Virus record (IMG/VR): IMGVR_UViG_2534682060_000010
Source of the DNA: a virus
Lineage: Duplodnaviria > Heunggongvirae > Uroviricota > Caudoviricetes
Length of the DNA stretch: 7,066 nt
Strand: one strand, 5' to 3'
Shown here: piece by piece, positions 1-7,066 of the stretch
Position numbering within the stretch: position 1 is the stretch's first letter
How the letters are laid out: every line of letters starts with the position of its first letter
Translations under genes and position numbers: made by a program
Notes under the pieces: model-generated
Told to the model about the DNA's origin: nothing
Databases searched by the model: none
The model's input: the letters and a program-made list of their open reading frames with translations, nothing else

Positions 1-79
1 GTAGCAGACCTGCAATCAGCCCAACACCTCCACCAGCCCATACATCAGGTGACCCCAGTTCAGGAGGGAGATTTACCAT
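1..79 (-). CDS. Possible 5' end of a minus-strand gene running off the left edge (visible N-terminus MVNLPPELGSPDVWAGGGVGLIAGLL)
   Basis: ATG at 79-77 on the minus strand, AAGGA Shine-Dalgarno (complement of 86-90) 6 nt upstream, frame open to position 1. Gly-rich hydrophobic N-terminus. First 80 nt are 43/80 G+C by my count, visibly richer than the rest. Plus-strand frame 1 is also open over 1-141, so the strand call is uncertain. Confidence 0.25.
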   Translation of the reverse strand, partial: MVNLPPELGSPDVWAGGGVGLIAGLL

Positions 80-93
80 TAGCTTTCCTTGTA

Positions 94-191
94 AGACGCT
101 CTCAATCGCATCCTGACACAAAACAGTACCTGACCTTATAGTTGACCTGAAGAGTCCGCTTAACTCGTTACAGAGCGATTGAAGAGGTCTG
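94..191. repeat. Structured repeat, copy A: left arm 94-124, unique 35-nt core 125-159, right arm 160-191
   Basis: Arms are near-identical to copy B (27/31 and 30/32 by manual alignment). Right arm is an imperfect reverse complement of the left arm, including a perfect 9-bp CTCAATCGC/GCGATTGAG pairing. Confidence 0.8.
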
Positions 192-262
192 TGTGCAATG
201 CAATAACCATGTGACCAAATACATAGCCACGCCTTTTCTATTTTTCCCTCTCTCATAGAACC

Positions 263-292
263 ATTATATCACAGATGTTAATAAAATGTTAA
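263..292 (-). promoter_or_regulatory. Sigma70-like promoter on the minus strand, firing leftward
   Basis: On the minus strand: -35 TTAACA (complement of 287-292), 18-nt spacer, extended -10 TGaTATAAT (complement of 263-271). Back-to-back with the plus-strand promoter at 299. Confidence 0.45.
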
Positions 293-298
293 AAATAC

Positions 299-337
299 TT
301 GACATTAGTCTTTGAAAATGCTAGTATTGTATATATA
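299..337 (+). promoter_or_regulatory. Sigma70-like promoter P1 for the 185/92/66-aa operon
   Basis: -35 TTGACA 299-304, 17-nt spacer, -10 TAGTAT 322-327, immediately followed by TGTATATATA 328-337. Same architecture as the promoter at 2007. Confidence 0.55.
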
Positions 338-378
338 AGTTAACAGAATAATAACATCTTATGAGGGTCAGAACATGA

Positions 379-936
379 ATGAGAGACGCAGAATTTAGAG
401 CGATGCTTCAGGCATCGAGACAACGTAACAGATACAACTCCTACAGCTACACAGACACCCCCACCAGCTACGAATTACCCAAGCTCACCCAAAAAGAACG
501 CAAAGGCATTGACGAAGTAATTCGGGCAATTACACCGAGGAACCGTTACATGCCAACACGCAAAACAACAAAGAACAGCATCAGGAATTATCTGGCTAGC
601 TTTGACAGCTACGCGCAACTACCGAGCAAGCTTGATGATATTTTTATTGGATTTTGCAGAAGCGAGGGTCACCAGAAATACAATCAGAAGGTTTTTTATT
701 TACTGCGAAGTCTTGATGAAATTAACTCAGCCACCGTGACAAATCATCTTCAGCGTCAAGCAACCAGACTTAGCCATGAATTACCAAGCGATAAATATTG
801 CGCTTTGCTTGCTGTAATGTGCGCAAAGTTAATTGGTGTTGTTGAGCATCATATTGCCGCTGGAAATATTGAGACAATGGAAAACGAGCAACCAGATTTC
901 GAGTTTGACCCGTATTTAGTTACAGAGGAATTTTAA
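379..936 (+). CDS. Hypothetical protein, 185 aa, basic N-terminal region
   Basis: Long ORF in AT-rich DNA; GAGGG 364-368 upstream of ATG 379; in-frame TGA immediately upstream; stop TAA abuts the next start. No motif recognised. Confidence 0.8.
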   Translation: MRDAEFRAMLQASRQRNRYNSYSYTDTPTSYELPKLTQKERKGIDEVIRAITPRNRYMPTRKTTKNSIRNYLASFDSYAQLPSKLDDIFIGFCRSEGHQKYNQKVFYLLRSLDEINSATVTNHLQRQATRLSHELPSDKYCALLAVMCAKLIGVVEHHIAAGNIETMENEQPDFEFDPYLVTEEF

Positions 937-1215
937 ATGAAGAAACACACTTTGACCCGTATTTCAGAGGAAGCTTTTAACGAGCTTACCAGAATTAAAC
1001 GAGCTACTAACTTGCCTCATCAAACTGTTATGCAGCTTGCAATCTCTAAAGTGGTCACTGAGTCGGATTTACTTAGATATCCAGTCTCTAAAGGCCGCAA
1101 ACACATCCGAATTACTCAGGACGCTTTAGATACTTTGAAGGGACTAAACAACTTTAAAATTGATATTGCCCGTCTAATGAGTATCAAAATTCACAAATTA
1201 GCGATGGAGGTTTAA
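937..1215 (+). CDS. Putative ribbon-helix-helix DNA-binding protein with two RHH-like repeats, 92 aa
   Basis: Starts directly after the previous stop (TAA 934-936, ATG 937). Residues ~5-38 (TLTRISEEAFNELTRIKRATNLPHQTVMQLAISKV) and ~56-88 (HIRITQDALDTLKGLNNFKIDIARLMSIKIHKL) each follow a beta-strand/helix/helix pattern typical of Arc/CopG/MetJ-type folds. Assignment is by pattern only. Confidence 0.75.
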   Translation: MKKHTLTRISEEAFNELTRIKRATNLPHQTVMQLAISKVVTESDLLRYPVSKGRKHIRITQDALDTLKGLNNFKIDIARLMSIKIHKLAMEV

Positions 1216-1415
1216 TGCTATGCGTTACCTTTGAATACCACACGGATAAAATGATTCGCTACATCTCCGACCTCCTGATTGAAGGAAACGGATTCGGTGA
1301 CATCCATAACTCAAAAGATATCTTCATTCACGCCACCAGCCCAAGCGAAACATTAAAAACAGCAGTTACAACGGAATGGTTTGAACGAAATAAAGTAGAA
1401 TTAGGCTATTGGTAG
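1215..1415 (+). CDS. Hypothetical protein, 66 aa
   Basis: TAATG overlap with the upstream gene (stop 1213-1215, start 1215-1217); GGAGG 1206-1210. No motif recognised. Confidence 0.6.
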   Translation: MLCVTFEYHTDKMIRYISDLLIEGNGFGDIHNSKDIFIHATSPSETLKTAVTTEWFERNKVELGYW

Positions 1416-1451
1416 TCCGAGACTTTAAGAGAAATTAGAAAAACAGCTTCT

Positions 1452-1571
1452 CAGACGCTCTCAATCGCATTCTAACGCAAAAAACTATCTTATTTTAGGG
1501 TGGGAATACCACTGTACAGGCTACCCCTGAAAAAGACTATTTAGCTCGTTACAGAGCGATTGAGGAGGTCT
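1452..1571. repeat. Structured repeat, copy B: left arm 1452-1482, unique 56-nt core 1483-1538 (contains palindrome CTGTACAG), right arm 1539-1571
   Basis: Same arms, order and orientation as copy A; core unrelated in sequence and length. Lies between the 66-aa gene stop and the 107-aa gene ribosome-binding site. Confidence 0.8.
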
Positions 1572-1593
1572 GGTAAAAAGGAGATTTTAGGAA

Positions 1594-1917
1594 ATGAACA
1601 ACTTCCCATTACAAATTTTCGTTGATAACGACGCCGCTCTGATGATTCAGGCTTTCACTGATGCAGGTGTGGCAATTGATTTTGACAGGCTGTTAAAGCT
1701 AGTTGCTGAGAACTCAGAAGTAATTGAAGATTTTATTCAGGGAATTGAAACTGGTGAACCACGTTTTATGTTTCCCGTTACCGACTCAAACATGAAAAGG
1801 CTTGTTATCGAAGAAACGAATAAATACAGCATTAGCCCTGAAAAATATCTCAAGGCGGCTATAGTAATTTTGTATAGCGACAGTATTTTGGTGACGGATT
1901 CGAAGGTGGTGCATTAA
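1594..1917 (+). CDS. Hypothetical acidic protein, 107 aa
   Basis: AAAAAGGAG 1575-1583 precedes ATG 1594. By my count 17 Asp+Glu against 9 Lys+Arg. No motif recognised. Confidence 0.75.
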   Translation: MNNFPLQIFVDNDAALMIQAFTDAGVAIDFDRLLKLVAENSEVIEDFIQGIETGEPRFMFPVTDSNMKRLVIEETNKYSISPEKYLKAAIVILYSDSILVTDSKVVH

Positions 1918-1982
1918 TGGTATTGGTGATTATCTGTTTTGTATTGATTGGTATGATTGCAGGTGCATCTATTAAAGTATAA
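1917..1982 (+). CDS. Candidate micro-ORF encoding a 21-aa hydrophobic peptide (MVLVIICFVLIGMIAGASIKV), not in the supplied ORF track
   Basis: ATG overlaps the upstream stop (TAATG at 1915-1919); AAGGTGG 1902-1908 lies 8 nt upstream; peptide is almost entirely hydrophobic with one Lys near the C-terminus; stop TAA 1980-1982. Confidence 0.3.
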   Translation: MVLVIICFVLIGMIAGASIKV

Positions 1983-2006
1983 ATGTTACCAATCTGTTAA
2001 AAGCTG

Positions 2007-2046
2007 TTGACAAATAACCTTGAGCATGACATAATTGTATATATAT
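2007..2046 (+). promoter_or_regulatory. Sigma70-like promoter P2, paralogous to P1
   Basis: -35 TTGACA 2007-2012, 17-nt spacer, -10 CATAAT 2030-2035, followed by TGTATATATA 2036-2045. Confidence 0.6.
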
Positions 2047-2210
2047 GGAGAGCAATTCTCCTTGAATTAAACTATTAATCATCTCTACATCGATGATAAC
2101 TATATTCTGAATTGGAAAGTGCAATGCTTTTCGCTACATGACCTCTTATATAACTTGAGAGGTCATCTCGAAAAGTCTTTGTTCATTTGAATCCTTTAGA
2201 TGCTACCTTT

Positions 2211-2238
2211 GCCCTAATCATGAGTTAGGGCTTTCTTT
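2211..2238 (+). terminator. Intrinsic-terminator-like hairpin T1 inside the long leader
   Basis: Stem GCCCTAA (2211-2217) / TTAGGGC (2225-2231), 7-nt loop, then TTTCTTT (2232-2238). Confidence 0.45.
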
Positions 2239-2307
2239 AAGAGTTTTTAAACAGAGCTTTTAAAGAAAGTTTTCCTGAAACTTCGTTAACGTTATAAGCA
2301 AACCTCC

Positions 2308-2340
2308 AAAGCCCTTCACAGATTACGTTTAGGGCTTTTT
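2308..2340 (+). terminator. Weaker terminator-like hairpin T2, related to T1
   Basis: Stem AAAGCCCT (2308-2315) / AGGGCTTT (2331-2338), 15-nt loop, T-run 2336-2340. Shares the 3' half TTAGGGCTTT with T1. Confidence 0.3.
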
Positions 2341-2456
2341 CAATTCATAAAAGCACACTTGGCAAGTTCTTGTTCAGTCAGACTCTTCACCTCTGATTGC
2401 TGAGTGTGCTTCTACGAATTTGAAAATAAGCAATTACACTAAAGAGGTGAAAAATA

Positions 2457-3197
2457 ATGTCTATCCGTGATGAACATGAAGCGATTGTTGATAGAAAACC
2501 TTGTGCATATGATTTGCATTTTACTGATGAAGGAGATGAGTATGCACATATGAAACCTTATCACAAAATTATTGCCAAGCTTGCAGATGAAGAGGCCAAA
2601 AAAGAAAGGCTACGAAAGATTGTTCCAGCCAATAATCTTGAATTTATCAATCCTGAGCCTCTGGAAATGACTGATGTTTGCAAGACAGAAGCTCTGATTG
2701 CACTTGAGAGGAGGTACTATCCACTACTAAAAGAGCAGCGCATCAAGCTTGATAATGCTTATGATGTTGTCAAGAACTTCGAAGAAACTCAGAAACCTTC
2801 AGAATATGATATTGAATATGAGCTTAAGACAAACCCGTTTATCTATTACGAAGGAAATTACAACAATGGTTTCGGTACAGCAAGAGAGAATGTTCCAAAA
2901 GTGCTTCAAAGTATTCCTGACGGTTTTCGATTAATAGATGTCAGACAAGCTCCACGTGGCACAGGCTCATATATCCTGATGACTAACAAAACAGACGAAG
3001 AGATTATTCAGTTGGTTGAGGCTAATTTGACTAAGCATTACTCCGATAAGCTGGACAAGTTAAAGCAAAAGCTTAAAAAAGAGCTTGATACTATGAAAGA
3101 GCTTGTTAGTGAATATGAGTCGCAGAAGAAGGTTGCTATGCAGGGTGATATTGAGCAGCTTACTAAGATTTCTCAGAAATACAGCAAAGCACTTTGA
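2457..3197 (+). CDS. Hypothetical protein, 246 aa, charged and probably coiled-coil at the C-terminus
   Basis: AGAGGTGA 2442-2449 upstream of ATG 2457; long ORF. No Walker or catalytic motif seen. Confidence 0.85.
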   Translation: MSIRDEHEAIVDRKPCAYDLHFTDEGDEYAHMKPYHKIIAKLADEEAKKERLRKIVPANNLEFINPEPLEMTDVCKTEALIALERRYYPLLKEQRIKLDNAYDVVKNFEETQKPSEYDIEYELKTNPFIYYEGNYNNGFGTARENVPKVLQSIPDGFRLIDVRQAPRGTGSYILMTNKTDEEIIQLVEANLTKHYSDKLDKLKQKLKKELDTMKELVSEYESQKKVAMQGDIEQLTKISQKYSKAL

Positions 3198-3539: not shown

Positions 3540-5588
3540 ATGAGCAAATTTACAGTTGATAGTTTTATTGTTGAGCTAGGCTTCAATGAAAACGTTATTA
3601 AGGGACTGCAAAGAGTTGAAAAGGCAGCTTTGCAGTCAGCACAAAGAATTGAAAAGAACCTAAATAAAGGTTTCAGGATAAATACAAAACAGCTTGATAG
3701 TAATTTGACAAGTTCTTTAAAGTCAATGGAAGGAAAAATTAATAAGACCTTTGACCGTCTGGAAGCTAGAGCAAAAAATACTAAAGCTTTCCGTTTCACA
3801 AGTCAGGTTAATGATGCTATTAATCCTCCAAAACAATCAAAGCCAAGAAGAGTTACTAGTGACCGAGCTATTACAGCGGCTTATTCAGCGAATATGACCA
3901 AACTGAAAGGTCTTAACCCAATTGTCGAGAAATACATTAAGAGTCAGTTTTACGCATTAAGTAGTAAAGCTGGTCAGATGGATAACACCAAGTTTAATGA
4001 AGCCCTTGCTAAACTAAATTCAAGTGTACGAGAAGCAATCACTAAAGCCAGAGGTCATACATCCACCAGCATTAATAGTGACAAAGCAGCTAGTTCTCTT
4101 GATAGTCTGTCTTCAGCAGCATTTAGAGCAGCAGGTGCATTTATCAGCTTTCAGGCTGTACTATCCGCTTATCAGCGAGTACTGGAAGTTGGTTTACAGC
4201 GTACATCATCGGAAAGAAGTATTGATTTCGTATTCGGTGACCAAAGTACACAGGTTAAAAAGTTCATTCAGGATTTAACTCAAGTCACGGGTATGGACAC
4301 GACCGAAACACAAGCTCAGTTTGCCTCATTCGGTGCATCTGCAAAGAATACGATGGGTCTTGAAGGCTCAGAGGAATTATTTAAAAACTTAACTGGATAT
4401 GCCCGTCTAATGGGGCGTTCAGATGAGCAGATTCAAAGAGCATTAACCGCAGTATCGCAGATGGCTTCTAAGGGGCAGGTGATGTCTGAGGAGTTGAAGG
4501 GGCAATTATCTGAAGCTTTACCGGGTGCTACTCAGGCATTTGCAAAGGCTTTAGGTCTGACTGAAAAACAGCTTTTCGATAAGATGAAAAATGGTGATGT
4601 TAAAGCCTCTGATGCACTCCCTAAGTTTGCTAAAGAACTTGGTGCACAGATTAATTCAAGAGGTGGCTGGAAAGCTATTCAGGACTCTACGCAGACAATG
4701 TTAGGGAACTTAAAGAATACCTGGAATAACTCATTAACGGATATTTTCAAAGGTTCTGAAAATGGTCTGCAAGATTTTACACGAAGCTTAACAACGCTTT
4801 TAAATAGTTTAGATGGAAGTGGTAAAACATTAGGTGAAAGTCTTGGTGGCTTGATGAGTGATATGTCATATGGTATCGATAACCTGACTTATATTAGTTA
4901 CAGGGTGAGAGCGTTCTTTGATGAGGTGACATTAGCTTATCGTGGTTTAACCGATGAACAAAAGAAAGTTGTTGATGCTTTAGGTTCTGGCTTGATTAAT
5001 AGTTTAAAAGTCTTGGCTGGTGTTATTGCTGTAAATAAAGTTGTTGGTGTAACTAGAAGTATTTACGGGCTTATGACTGCTATCACAAGATTAGGTCAGG
5101 TCGCTGATACTACAGCAGATAACGTAAATAAAAAGAACGGGAAACCATCAAGGTTTAATCTTGGGAATATGCTATTAACTGGTAGTGCAATCTATGCAGG
5201 TTATGAGAGATTAGCTTCTACGCCTGAACGAATGGAAGCACAAGCTAAATTACCAGAGCTAGCTAAAGAGTCTGGACTTAAACCCGCTTTCACTATGGAT
5301 GATGTTAAAGGGTGGTTTAATAGTGCTGCCATGAATCTTGCTAACTTCCAGCATCCAGAATTAAACAACATTAAGCAAGATTCAGCATTAACGAGTGCAG
5401 ATATCCAAAGCCTGAGAGATGAAATCTCCGCTTTGAGTAAACGTATTCAGGAGCCTGTGAAAGTTTCACTTGGTGGTGAAGTTGCCATTAAACCAGATGA
5501 AACCAGCTTTATGACCTTTAGCGGTAATATCTACGACCAATACGCAGAAGCTACGCTATTAAGTTCATCATTCCCAGAAGATGATTGA
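3540..5588 (+). CDS. Phage tail tape-measure-like protein, 682 aa
   Basis: GAGGTG 3524-3529 upstream of ATG 3540. Internal segment KGQVMSEELKGQLSEALPGATQAFAKALGLTEKQLFDKMKNGDVKASDALPKFAKELG fits, from memory, the conserved tape-measure domain pattern. Long helical low-complexity N-terminal half and a hydrophobic segment LINSLKVLAGVIAVNKVVGV. Confidence is high that this is a gene, moderate for the product. Confidence 0.7.
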   Translation: MSKFTVDSFIVELGFNENVIKGLQRVEKAALQSAQRIEKNLNKGFRINTKQLDSNLTSSLKSMEGKINKTFDRLEARAKNTKAFRFTSQVNDAINPPKQSKPRRVTSDRAITAAYSANMTKLKGLNPIVEKYIKSQFYALSSKAGQMDNTKFNEALAKLNSSVREAITKARGHTSTSINSDKAASSLDSLSSAAFRAAGAFISFQAVLSAYQRVLEVGLQRTSSERSIDFVFGDQSTQVKKFIQDLTQVTGMDTTETQAQFASFGASAKNTMGLEGSEELFKNLTGYARLMGRSDEQIQRALTAVSQMASKGQVMSEELKGQLSEALPGATQAFAKALGLTEKQLFDKMKNGDVKASDALPKFAKELGAQINSRGGWKAIQDSTQTMLGNLKNTWNNSLTDIFKGSENGLQDFTRSLTTLLNSLDGSGKTLGESLGGLMSDMSYGIDNLTYISYRVRAFFDEVTLAYRGLTDEQKKVVDALGSGLINSLKVLAGVIAVNKVVGVTRSIYGLMTAITRLGQVADTTADNVNKKNGKPSRFNLGNMLLTGSAIYAGYERLASTPERMEAQAKLPELAKESGLKPAFTMDDVKGWFNSAAMNLANFQHPELNNIKQDSALTSADIQSLRDEISALSKRIQEPVKVSLGGEVAIKPDETSFMTFSGNIYDQYAEATLLSSSFPEDD

Positions 5589-5600
5589 TAATAGTCGAAT

Positions 5601-5657
5601 GCTACGTGAATAAAGCAAAGTTAATACCCACACTAAAAAATTATTTTTCACGTAGCT
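5601..5657. repeat. Perfect 10-bp inverted repeat GCTACGTGAA / TTCACGTAGC with a 37-nt spacer
   Basis: Arms at 5601-5610 and 5648-5657 are exact reverse complements; located in the AT-rich gap between the tape-measure gene and the next gene. Confidence 0.7.
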
Positions 5658-5746
5658 CACGCTTAATAGAGAAAACACTTATATATTAAAGGATTAGTTA
5701 AAAATAGTTAAAATACACTAAGCCTTTGAAATCAAAGGAGAATTTA

Positions 5747-6517
5747 ATGATTTACACTAATCAGCTTCGTTACAGTGGCAAAGATGGTGTTTACTTCCAT
5801 CTACAAGGCCAACCAGATAATTTCTTGTCACTATCAGCTACTGAGAACATGGAATTTGATAGCCCTATGATGGTTACCACTCAAAATATGCAATCAGGGC
5901 AGGCTGTCACAGATAATGTAATGCGTTCACCCAGAACAATTACTATTAGTGGTGTCGTTGTAGTTGGCTATGAAGGAAGCTTATTATTGACTCGTCAAGG
6001 GCAATTAGTAGAAAACTTCATTGATACTCTGGAAAGCTGGAGAGACCAGAAACAGATTATTTCGGTCATCTGTAAAGATGGTATCAAAATTGACGATTCC
6101 ATTATTACAAACTTTAAAGCCTCTAAAGATGTTGGAATTTCTAATGGCCTAAGAATCCAGCTAACTTTTCAGGAAATTAACTTTAAAGCTATCGTAGGGC
6201 AAACTGATATTTCATCTGCAACTGGAAAGACCGCTACCACGAATGATGGCGGTGCTACCAGTAAAAAGAACACCGGAAACACTACAACGAGCCTTGGAAG
6301 CCCTATGCTGACCTGTAAAGAGCTTTTTAGCTATTCGGCAAGTGAGTTATCAGATGAAGCGCTAAAAGCCCGTGTAACGTGCTCTAAGAGCGTTAGCGTT
6401 AAAAATGGTGAGAGCACCTTCTCAGATGCCGCTAATGAGCAAGCTTCAAAGGTGCTTAAGCCGGGTAATGCTCTGCGAAAGTACTCTGTGAACCCTAACA
6501 AGAAGGGCACTTATTGA
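5747..6517 (+). CDS. Hypothetical protein, ~256 aa; possibly a tail component by position
   Basis: AAAGGAG 5733-5739 sits 7 nt upstream of ATG 5747; the track's TTG start at 5726 lies upstream of the Shine-Dalgarno and is less likely. Placement right after a tape-measure gene suggests a distal tail protein, but I recognise no motif. Confidence 0.8.
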
Positions 6518-7065: not shown

Positions 7066-7066
7066 A

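Follow-up and report, generated by a model that had tools for sequence, protein, structure and literature searches.

The stretch of DNA considered here, IMG/VR virus record IMGVR_UViG_2534682060_000010 of the Caudoviricetes (7,066 nucleotides (nt); hereafter the window), begins with a patch rich in guanine and cytosine (GC), followed by AT-rich DNA that holds a palindromic repeat (copy A) and two divergent promoters. To the author of an earlier note on this DNA, the first 292 nt looked like a junction, with a resident gene on one side and an AT-rich region of acquired cassettes on the other, and the question raised by the locus is whether such a junction exists there. It does not: positions 1–292 are a conserved internal control region rather than a border between host and foreign DNA. 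This region probably serves in both directions, as the control region of an 11.6-kb integrative island, which encodes a large serine recombinase and has entered tonB within its first codons.

Composition and position of the left edge

The GC-rich start described in the earlier note is real. Positions 1–80 have 53.7% GC, against 39.1% for the whole window, and are its most GC-rich 80-nt stretch; among all 80-nt windows (mean 39.0%, standard deviation 5.4) only 0.07% reach this value, all of them within positions 1–88. To the right, GC drops locally from 54% to 23–31% within 250 nt, and a 1.36-kb block of small open reading frames (ORFs) has the direct repeats A and B on either side. These features would suit a resident chromosomal gene at 1–80 with an acquired AT-rich cassette array running rightward from a boundary at about 80–292, but the DNA on the left contradicts such an arrangement. 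In the longer locus L004, of which the window is 9623–16688 (window position 1 being L004 9623), the patch is part of a 189-nt ORF with 50.8% GC, and the next 1.45 kb to the left, still within the same island, has 39.4% GC, the same as the island average of 40.0%. The earlier note had itself asked for this leftward extension and GC profile, and had named beforehand a flank that turns AT-rich again as the outcome speaking against a boundary. Within the ORF, the GC excess lies in first codon positions (63.5%, against 46% in third positions), and it therefore reflects the content of Gly, Pro, Ala, Val, Leu and Arg codons, not foreign origin. The GC-rich patch is the codon content of a small gene.

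The true ends are kilobases away. The window sits 3.4 kb inside the island, whose 40.0% GC stands against 48–50% in the chromosomal flanks. The left end, at L004 ~6190 (3.4 kb left of window position 1), shows the old tonB promoter region, then ATGACCCTTGA joined to ATAAAG, and at the right end, at L004 ~17782 (1.1 kb right of window position 7066), the intact tonB starts at ~17783 with ACAATGACCCTTGA joined to TTTACC. These two junction sequences place the insertion in the first tonB codons, define the core AATGACCCTTGA common to both ends (L004 ~6178–6190 and ~17782–17793), and set the length at ~11.6 kb. Thus, the attachment-site repeat lies outside window positions 1–292, and the compositional shift does not persist into a flank with host core genes, since the host genes yciI and tonB are reached only 3.4 kb leftward of the window and 1.1 kb past its right edge. 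Moreover, the small gene moves with the island to other integration sites and genera, and no integron integrase is called in any island locus, where serine recombinases or a weak phage-integrase match are found instead; a resident-gene boundary has next to no probability. An integron cassette array was rejected on the same lack of a called integrase, and because the 3' arm of the repeat, GTTACAG, misfits the attC core GTTRRRY. The plus-strand frame over 1–141, which the earlier note had considered as the possible real gene, was also discarded: it has no ATG, its opening lies just 9 nt beyond the left edge, and variation among the islands follows the codon phase of the minus strand.

A small leftward gene and two divergent promoters

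The minus-strand start codon with a Shine-Dalgarno sequence that the earlier note placed at the end of the patch belongs to an ORF of 62 amino acids, its ATG being preceded by AAGGA (Table 1). Gene callers and PGAP call exactly this ORF in homologous loci. It is intact in 18 distinct variants of 58–62 amino acids from Escherichia, Citrobacter and Kluyvera, with mostly conservative substitutions (V/I, F/L, R/K) and with insertions or deletions of 3 or 12 nt that all keep the frame. As in a protein-coding gene, third codon positions are the most variable, with 13, 6 and 25 variable columns (of 55 each) at minus-strand codon positions 1, 2 and 3, and the gene is under purifying selection. The Shine-Dalgarno AGGAA is retained in E. 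coli-type variants with or without copy A; in the Kluyvera- and Citrobacter-type variants shown, the ATG has a related GAAGG ahead of it. A database search with the protein gave 81 homologue clusters, of which the named ones are all hypothetical, and where the source names an organism it is Escherichia, Citrobacter or Kluyvera. The gene is part of the conserved core of the island family and not a host gene.

Residues 19–37 form a hydrophobic segment of 19 residues (Kyte-Doolittle maximum 2.18), that is, one predicted membrane helix, preceded by an acidic stretch at the N-terminus and followed by a C-terminal tail that is basic and hydrophilic. We infer from hydropathy that the protein inserts into the membrane, probably with its N-terminus outside and its C-terminus inside the cell. 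Since it matches no family in Pfam, PHROG, NCBIfam or PADLOC, a role can be proposed by analogy only; our best guess is an envelope protein of the resident state, directed against incoming or helper phage, as in prophage superinfection exclusion. Small inner-membrane exclusion proteins of prophages include HK97 gp15 and T4 Imm, for example. Like phage morons and exclusion proteins, the gene is a short ORF with its own promoter in a mobile element, with a local compositional bump and one predicted helix in its product. Unlike morons, it is part of the conserved core of an island family rather than an optional addition, and no clear terminator closes the unit; the protein has no sequence similarity to any exclusion protein, so the likeness is one of analogy.

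The leftward promoter and the rightward promoter P1 are both present as the earlier note had read them, with -35 elements that the promoter scan places only 6 nt apart, and both are conserved. The leftward promoter has 11 of 12 consensus matches plus an upstream TG, and ties for the best score in window 1–2500 with a plus-strand promoter at 2007–2035. Its hexamers have a spacing within the 16–18 nt range of sigma-70 promoters and are conserved in relatives: in islands of other genera, whose small protein is 67–75% identical, TG(A/G)TATAAT, the TAACA of the -35 element and the whole of P1 with its spacer are kept. Across all islands P1 is nearly invariant, spacer included. In the alignment with distant islands (L069–L074), conservation is higher between the genes than within them, and the control region is the best-conserved DNA of the locus. 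In this it resembles the stl-str region of SaPIs and phage immunity regions, in which a resident gene read to the left and an operon of several genes read to the right likewise start from back-to-back promoters, and the intergenic DNA is also more conserved than the genes; in contrast to these, the leftward product here is a 62-amino-acid predicted membrane protein, not a DNA-binding repressor. P1 (299–339) and the second strong plus-strand promoter (2007–2047) are also alike beyond their hexamers, sharing TTGACA..CTTGA..ATG..TA(T/A)TTGTATATATA. This likeness in the spacer and around the start site suggests that the two have a common operator or form a specialized promoter class.

From a start at A256, the leftward transcript would have a 5' untranslated region of 177 nt, which agrees with the leader of about 175 nt, with copy A in antisense, that the earlier note had foreseen. 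The predicted start coincides with an ATG (256–254) that is in frame with the small ORF in this lineage, but neither a 121-codon extended ORF nor a leaderless upstream ORF from this ATG was accepted, as the extended frame is open only in L001 and L007; the ATG opens just 3–29-codon ORFs in varying frames in the other islands, and hence the extension is not a conserved coding feature. The invariant leader block stands directly upstream of the Shine-Dalgarno in islands without copy A. Near the 5' end of the RNA, the 7-bp stem-loop is paired in 77 of 77 cells (11 distinct leaders), against 26–51% in slid controls; four of its seven pairs vary, with one AU-to-GC double change and two positions that are mostly G·U. 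A G·U pair of the leftward RNA turns into a C·A mismatch when the other strand is read; hence only the leftward RNA can form this stem-loop, which gives indirect, independent evidence that the leftward promoter is used. It was flagged as terminator-like; its tail is poor in T, and it is probably a 5'-end stabilizer. In seven islands (L010, L013, L014, L016, L023, L027 and L036) a palindromic insertion of 30–50 nt (GGTTTATTCGATAAACC...) lies within its loop (217–224), which makes it, after copy A, the second small indel of this leader. The 5' end of the leader (GAGAGAGGG) is predicted to pair with codons 4–7 of the gene (CUCCCUCC).

We propose that the leftward promoter would fire back-to-back with P1, as two outward-facing sigma-70 promoters around a 65-bp core (263–327). 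P1 would drive the rightward operon leading toward the tail genes, and the leftward messenger RNA would carry, in order, the 5' stem-loop, the invariant block, in this lineage the inserted hairpin of copy A, antisense to copy B, then a free AAGGA Shine-Dalgarno and the 62-amino-acid ORF.

Several points weigh against this proposal. Promoter-like hits as such are not rare, being mildly enriched (9 found, 6.2 expected in shuffles), so the support for the promoters rests on their conservation; we infer promoter activity and the leftward start only from consensus and conservation. No terminator that passes the scan directly follows the ORF, the next strong one on the minus strand being 1.2 kb to the left (L004 8292–8269), and the leftward transcript may thus be longer, serving a gene-free stretch with 95-bp tandem repeats. 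To these points must be added the lack of any family match for the protein. Copy A, finally, shows few substitutions, some of which break pairs without compensation, and its structural support is weak.

The 1.45-kb gene-free stretch itself, downstream of the small ORF, contains two tandem repeats of ~95 bp (74–85% identical; L004 9216–9298 and 9310–9393, ~230–400 nt left of the window), which may be a replication origin or a binding array, together with short inverted repeats. When Rfam covariance models were run on the window and 4 kb to its left, neither the repeats nor the leader had a match at E ≤ 1.

Table 1. Features of the control region, the wider motif family and the island. Positions are those of the window unless a locus is named.
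Feature	Position	Strand	Remarks
ORF of 62 amino acids	1–79, extending 110 nt past the left edge of the window (L004 9513–9701)	-	first 26 codons in the window (MVNLPPELGSPDVWAGGGVGLIAGLL...)
Shine-Dalgarno AAGGA	86–90	-	6 nt upstream of ATG 79–77
Repeat copy A, 101-bp palindromic indel	88–190	.	ends ambiguous by CT (88–188 to 90–190)
Invariant leader block TGTGCAATGCA	192–202	-	unchanged in every aligned island, including Citrobacter and Kluyvera types
7-bp stem-loop close to the 5' end of the leftward transcript	211–230	-	230–224 pairs with 217–211; conserved
Predicted leftward start A256	254–256	-	seventh nt after the -10 element, from promoter geometry; coincides with ATG
Leftward sigma-70 promoter	263–292	-	-35 TTAACA (292–287), 18-nt spacer, extended -10 TGaTATAAT (271–263)
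Rightward promoter P1	299–327	+	TTGACA-17-TAGTAT with upstream TG; -35 six nt from the leftward -35
Repeat copy B, ~125-nt hairpin within the rightward operon, between two of its genes	1447–1572	+	z-score -4.5; ends 10 nt upstream of the Shine-Dalgarno of the 107-amino-acid ORF
Core motif sites outside the island	L019 820–849; L020 ~2001; L017 186–223; L021 6210; L046; L052; L068		
Island genes, left to right			221-amino-acid orphan, 183-amino-acid small serine recombinase, ~1.45 kb without called genes, 62-amino-acid minus-strand ORF
Island genes, continued			plus-strand genes of the window: six orphans, 682-amino-acid tape-measure protein, Dit-like baseplate protein
Right end of the island			506-amino-acid large serine recombinase adjoining tonB

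The repeats and the wider motif family

Copy A is a true repeat, as the earlier note had called it: 88–138 and 160–191 match 1447–1497 and 1541–1572, with 78% identity over the first 51 nt and 94% over the other 32 nt, and two occurrences of the arm motifs are found in the 20.5-kb locus, against 0.08–0.21 expected. Copy A is an indel. Its arms (94–109 and 176–191) form a 15-bp stem with two single-nt bulges, the right arm ending 1–3 nt past the end of the indel. Exactly 101 bp are absent from the E. coli islands L015 and L016, where the empty site reads TTTCCTGTGTGCAATG, and six of six distant islands (L069–L074) are without the element, with an intergenic region of ~197 nt. The islands free of copy A probably represent the ancestral state, and their distribution implies an ancestral leader of ~75 nt into which copy A was inserted later, between the invariant block and the Shine-Dalgarno. 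The element is dispensable for the small gene. Its gene-proximal arm ends 8 nt upstream of the Shine-Dalgarno, which is predicted to be accessible (unpaired probability 0.78). Read leftward, the element forms its more stable fold, the consensus energy being -28.2 kcal/mol against -19.0 kcal/mol in the other sense, and the same holds individually for 11 of 12 variants. If copy A acts at all, it most likely does so as an RNA hairpin 8 nt upstream of the Shine-Dalgarno, with plausible effects on RNA processing, RNA stability or insulation of the ribosome-binding site; its placement is similar to that of copy B, 10 nt ahead of the Shine-Dalgarno of the 107-amino-acid gene. A promoter within copy A (CTGACA-18-TATAGT, 113–142) was considered and rejected, as its -10 element is lost in other variants.

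Copy B is almost invariant in E. coli islands, in which the neighboring genes are only 75–90% identical, and diverged B-like sequences occupy the same place in distant islands, just upstream of the Shine-Dalgarno of a gene for 101–108 amino acids. The consensus hairpin, from a nine-sequence alignment of B-like sequences, has 23 pairs; 88.3% of its cells are paired, against 80.6% in shuffles, none of 500 of which reaches the observed value, and at most 54% in slid controls. Six pairs have changes on both sides, and the G·U pairs fall in the plus sense. Compensatory changes of the kind expected of a conserved structured RNA are thus present in the copy B type, and the evidence that copy B forms a hairpin in the RNA of the rightward operon, between two of its genes, is rated moderate because only about four independent lineages contribute. 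The preferred model for the island copies A and B is that of an RNA hairpin placed ahead of a ribosome-binding site. The intergenic hairpins that RNase III cuts in phage early operons, such as T7 R0.3–R1.3 and the lambda N leader, are likewise long, imperfect, repeated, alike among themselves and located a few nt upstream of ribosome-binding sites in polycistronic RNA; unlike them, the island repeats have a 24-nt core that is conserved in sequence across unrelated mobile elements, beyond what RNase III needs.

This core, (C)TAAAACGCTCTCAA(T/A)CGC(A/T)TTCT(A/G)A, lies at window 94–117 and 1453–1476. As the core of the 5' arm it can also be written ACGCTCTCAA(T/A)CGC(A/T)TTCT(A/G)AC, and besides the island family it is common to otherwise unrelated enterobacterial mobile elements: Asteriusvirus jumbo phages, unclassified phage contigs of 85 and 148 kb, a 46-kb viral contig, where it stands upstream of a leftward operon, small Mob plasmids, and T5-like phages. 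The 85-kb contig, otherwise unrelated to the T5-like phages, shares with them only a block of ~70 nt around the core. In the T5-like terminal repeat (L019, a record flipped relative to T5), the core of 24–30 nt is ~9.27 kb into the repeat and, in T5 orientation, corresponds to the start of Repeat Region 3, adjoining the proposed injection stop signal (Davison, bioRxiv 10.1101/866236); nothing but the core is shared between that region and the island repeats. The plasmid copies and copy A have a common left flank, ATTTACCAT(A/T)A...TTGTA, which in the island contains the Shine-Dalgarno and the first three codons of the small ORF. Several phages show a -10-like TAATAT or TAAAAT 5–9 nt upstream of the core, and within the core (A/T)CGC recurs every 10 nt. 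For the most distant members, RNAalifold finds eight weak pairs with one covarying position (A-U, G-C, G·U).

Three further identities for the element were dropped. The 316-amino-acid plasmid ORF downstream of it looks like a methyltransferase, not a Rep protein, which removes a plasmid Rep leader; a boxA- or nut-like antitermination signal (CGCTCTCAA, compared with CGCTCTTA) fails because the orientation to transcription is inconsistent between contexts; and the core has no conserved hexamers that would make it a sigma-70 promoter.

Copy A could instead be selfish DNA, inserted in the manner of a miniature inverted-repeat transposable element (MITE), without function for the neighboring gene and in the leader by accident. 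Its precise 101-bp presence or absence, the imperfect terminal inverted repeats of ~16 bp, the CT dinucleotide at both junctions, the uncompensated arm substitutions in several variants, and the occurrence of the core in unrelated phages and plasmids all speak for such an origin. However, each island holds at most two copies, their two positions never differ between islands, and the element was not seen inserted elsewhere; matching E. coli genomes have a median of one place and a maximum of six, the higher counts being read as multiple islands. Nor are there many copies with target-site duplications, as the junctions share CT only, and no transposase is associated. The consistently better folding of copy A in the transcribed sense, and the strong constraint on copy B, with compensatory changes across genera that point to function, make a functionless insertion unlikely.

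For the two repeats as a pair, the main alternative to the hairpin is a protein-binding DNA array: sites resembling res or hix at which the small serine recombinase would act, or operators of a 92-amino-acid protein encoded in the window, with the 24-nt core as the binding array. The 10-bp periodicity of the core ACGCTCTCAATCGCATTCTAACGC, the far better conservation of the 5' arm than of its pairing partner in distant members, the changing orientation relative to transcription between contexts, and the presence of a small serine recombinase at a distance of 1.5–1.7 kb, in the island and likewise in L021, a contig unrelated to it, would fit this model. We give it a small probability, as the distance between the arms is variable (~50 to 90 bp), the compensatory changes and G·U pairs suggest a single strand that folds on itself, and both copies are kept in islands where a methyltransferase replaces the small recombinase.

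A slightly lower place is held by a module like type I toxin-antitoxin loci, in which the 62-amino-acid protein would serve as a membrane toxin and an antisense RNA would control its leader, the candidate being the rightward operon RNA, whose copy B is complementary to the antisense copy A of the leader. Like hok/sok, tisB/istR and zorO/orzO, the locus combines a small hydrophobic ORF, whose product has one predicted membrane helix, with a long (177 nt) structured 5' untranslated region and a predicted pairing of its 5' end with the start of the coding sequence. The sequence sharing between A and B would add a partner, and the predicted leader-B duplex has an energy of -127 kcal/mol, against -63 ± 6 for shuffled B. 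On the other hand, no antisense RNA gene was found and no antisense promoter is conserved within the leader. The gene is present without A in L015, L016 and L069–L074, and A without B in L013; A–B pairing therefore cannot be essential, and the candidate partner is dispensable. The protein, which matches no family in any library searched, has 62 amino acids and a 24-residue hydrophilic tail, and is larger than most type I toxins. We consider a toxin-antitoxin function very doubtful, and return to the RNA hairpin as the preferred reading of copies A and B.

The island and its significance

Related islands are present in 531 of 5,426 complete E. coli genomes, and the left-edge region in 409 of the 5,426, sometimes at other chromosomal sites; the family is thus carried by ~8–10% of complete E. 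coli genomes. A 185-amino-acid ORF (window 379–936) is found unchanged on many contigs, and in six of six fetched places, on Escherichia-type chromosomes, it lies in the yciI-tonB block. Citrobacter and Kluyvera also carry such islands, some next to a weak phage-integrase match instead of a serine recombinase. The DNA left of the small ORF varies among islands, with the small recombinase in either orientation, or an adenine methyltransferase or an AP2/HNH gene in its place. Many related islands (L009–L012, L014–L016) contain small HNH endonuclease ORFs (42–95 amino acids) that are absent from the window, in one of two positions: between the window ORFs 937–1215 and 1215–1415, or between 1415 and 1447. 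A link between the repeat element and these genes was dropped, as they occur at two sites and copy B is present without them. At the other extreme, E. coli 2013C-4225 (L035, 820–4815) has a minimal island of ~4.5 kb at tonB, which retains only the large recombinase, a B-like element (71% identical), a small recombinase and one ORF; the whole operon is gone, and this version may be a deletion derivative.

At the insertion site, the native tonB promoter region is left driving a four-codon stub (ATGACCCTTGAATAA; L004 6176–6190 and 17780–17793), and the intact tonB ORF is preceded by island DNA. Therefore, tonB regulation may be altered in carriers. In E. coli K-12 the tonB promoter is regulated by Fur.

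The tail genes of the island (tape-measure and Dit-like) span window 3540–6517. The tape-measure protein has 32% amino acid identity to its counterpart in Felixounavirus (Felix O1-like phages), and the 5' part of the Dit-like gene (window ~5771–6297) has 86–90% nucleotide identity to Felixounavirus genomes, which suggests recent exchange with virulent Felix O1-like phages and a satellite-like or tail-interference role. Window 1–2100 gave no match to phage genomes at the DNA level, nor did a 246-amino-acid ORF at the protein level; the orphan neighbors of the small protein have no match in Pfam, PHROGs, NCBIfam or PADLOC, and tRNA scans found nothing. Two of the lesser ORFs deserve mention. That of 92 amino acids (window 937–1215) resembles, by reading of its sequence, a tandem ribbon-helix-helix protein, with only weak database matches to DndE, under curated cut-offs; its product is a candidate DNA-binding regulator of the control region or the repeats. 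An ORF of 21 hydrophobic codons (window 1917–1982, MVLVIICFVLIGMIAGASIKV) overlaps the stop of the 107-amino-acid gene (TAATG), has a 17-nt inverted match to window 8–24 (the GLIAG segment of the 62-amino-acid gene), and may encode a second tiny membrane peptide.

The combination of a large serine recombinase with Dit-like and tape-measure genes related to those of a possible helper phage is what would be expected of a phage satellite. Like the PLE satellites of Vibrio cholerae, which involve phage ICP1, this is a small chromosomal island with a large serine recombinase, mostly orphan genes, and structural genes shared with a virulent myovirus. No proteins shared with the PLEs were detected, and in contrast to them the island has its own tape-measure and Dit-like baseplate genes. 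Literature searches on the island, Felix O1 satellites, tonB-integrating recombinases and the core motif string found no paper, and a tonB-integrated island with Felix O1-related tail genes is apparently undescribed. A far-reaching interpretation would join these strands: the A/B hairpin as an undescribed family of cis-acting RNA or single-stranded DNA that regulates the small membrane protein and the pre-tail operon, and the island as an undescribed PLE-like parasite of, or defense against, Felix O1-like phages that rewires tonB expression through insertion in its first codons. We regard it as speculative, and rather improbable in this full form.

The left-edge finding is in itself ordinary: a small gene with its own promoter in a mobile island, whose boundary-like look is an effect of amino acid composition. 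Its by-products are more interesting, namely, an apparently undescribed island in tonB with Felix O1-related tail genes, and a hairpin core common to unrelated phages and plasmids. The regulatory hub of an E. coli island family is now located, and it offers usable handles, which are two outward promoters, a stem-loop specific to the leftward RNA, a small predicted membrane protein, and a hairpin present or absent between islands. With these it can be asked when the island switches on, and whether Felix O1-like phages suffer interference from it, a question relevant to phage therapy and to the phage typing of Salmonella and E. coli.

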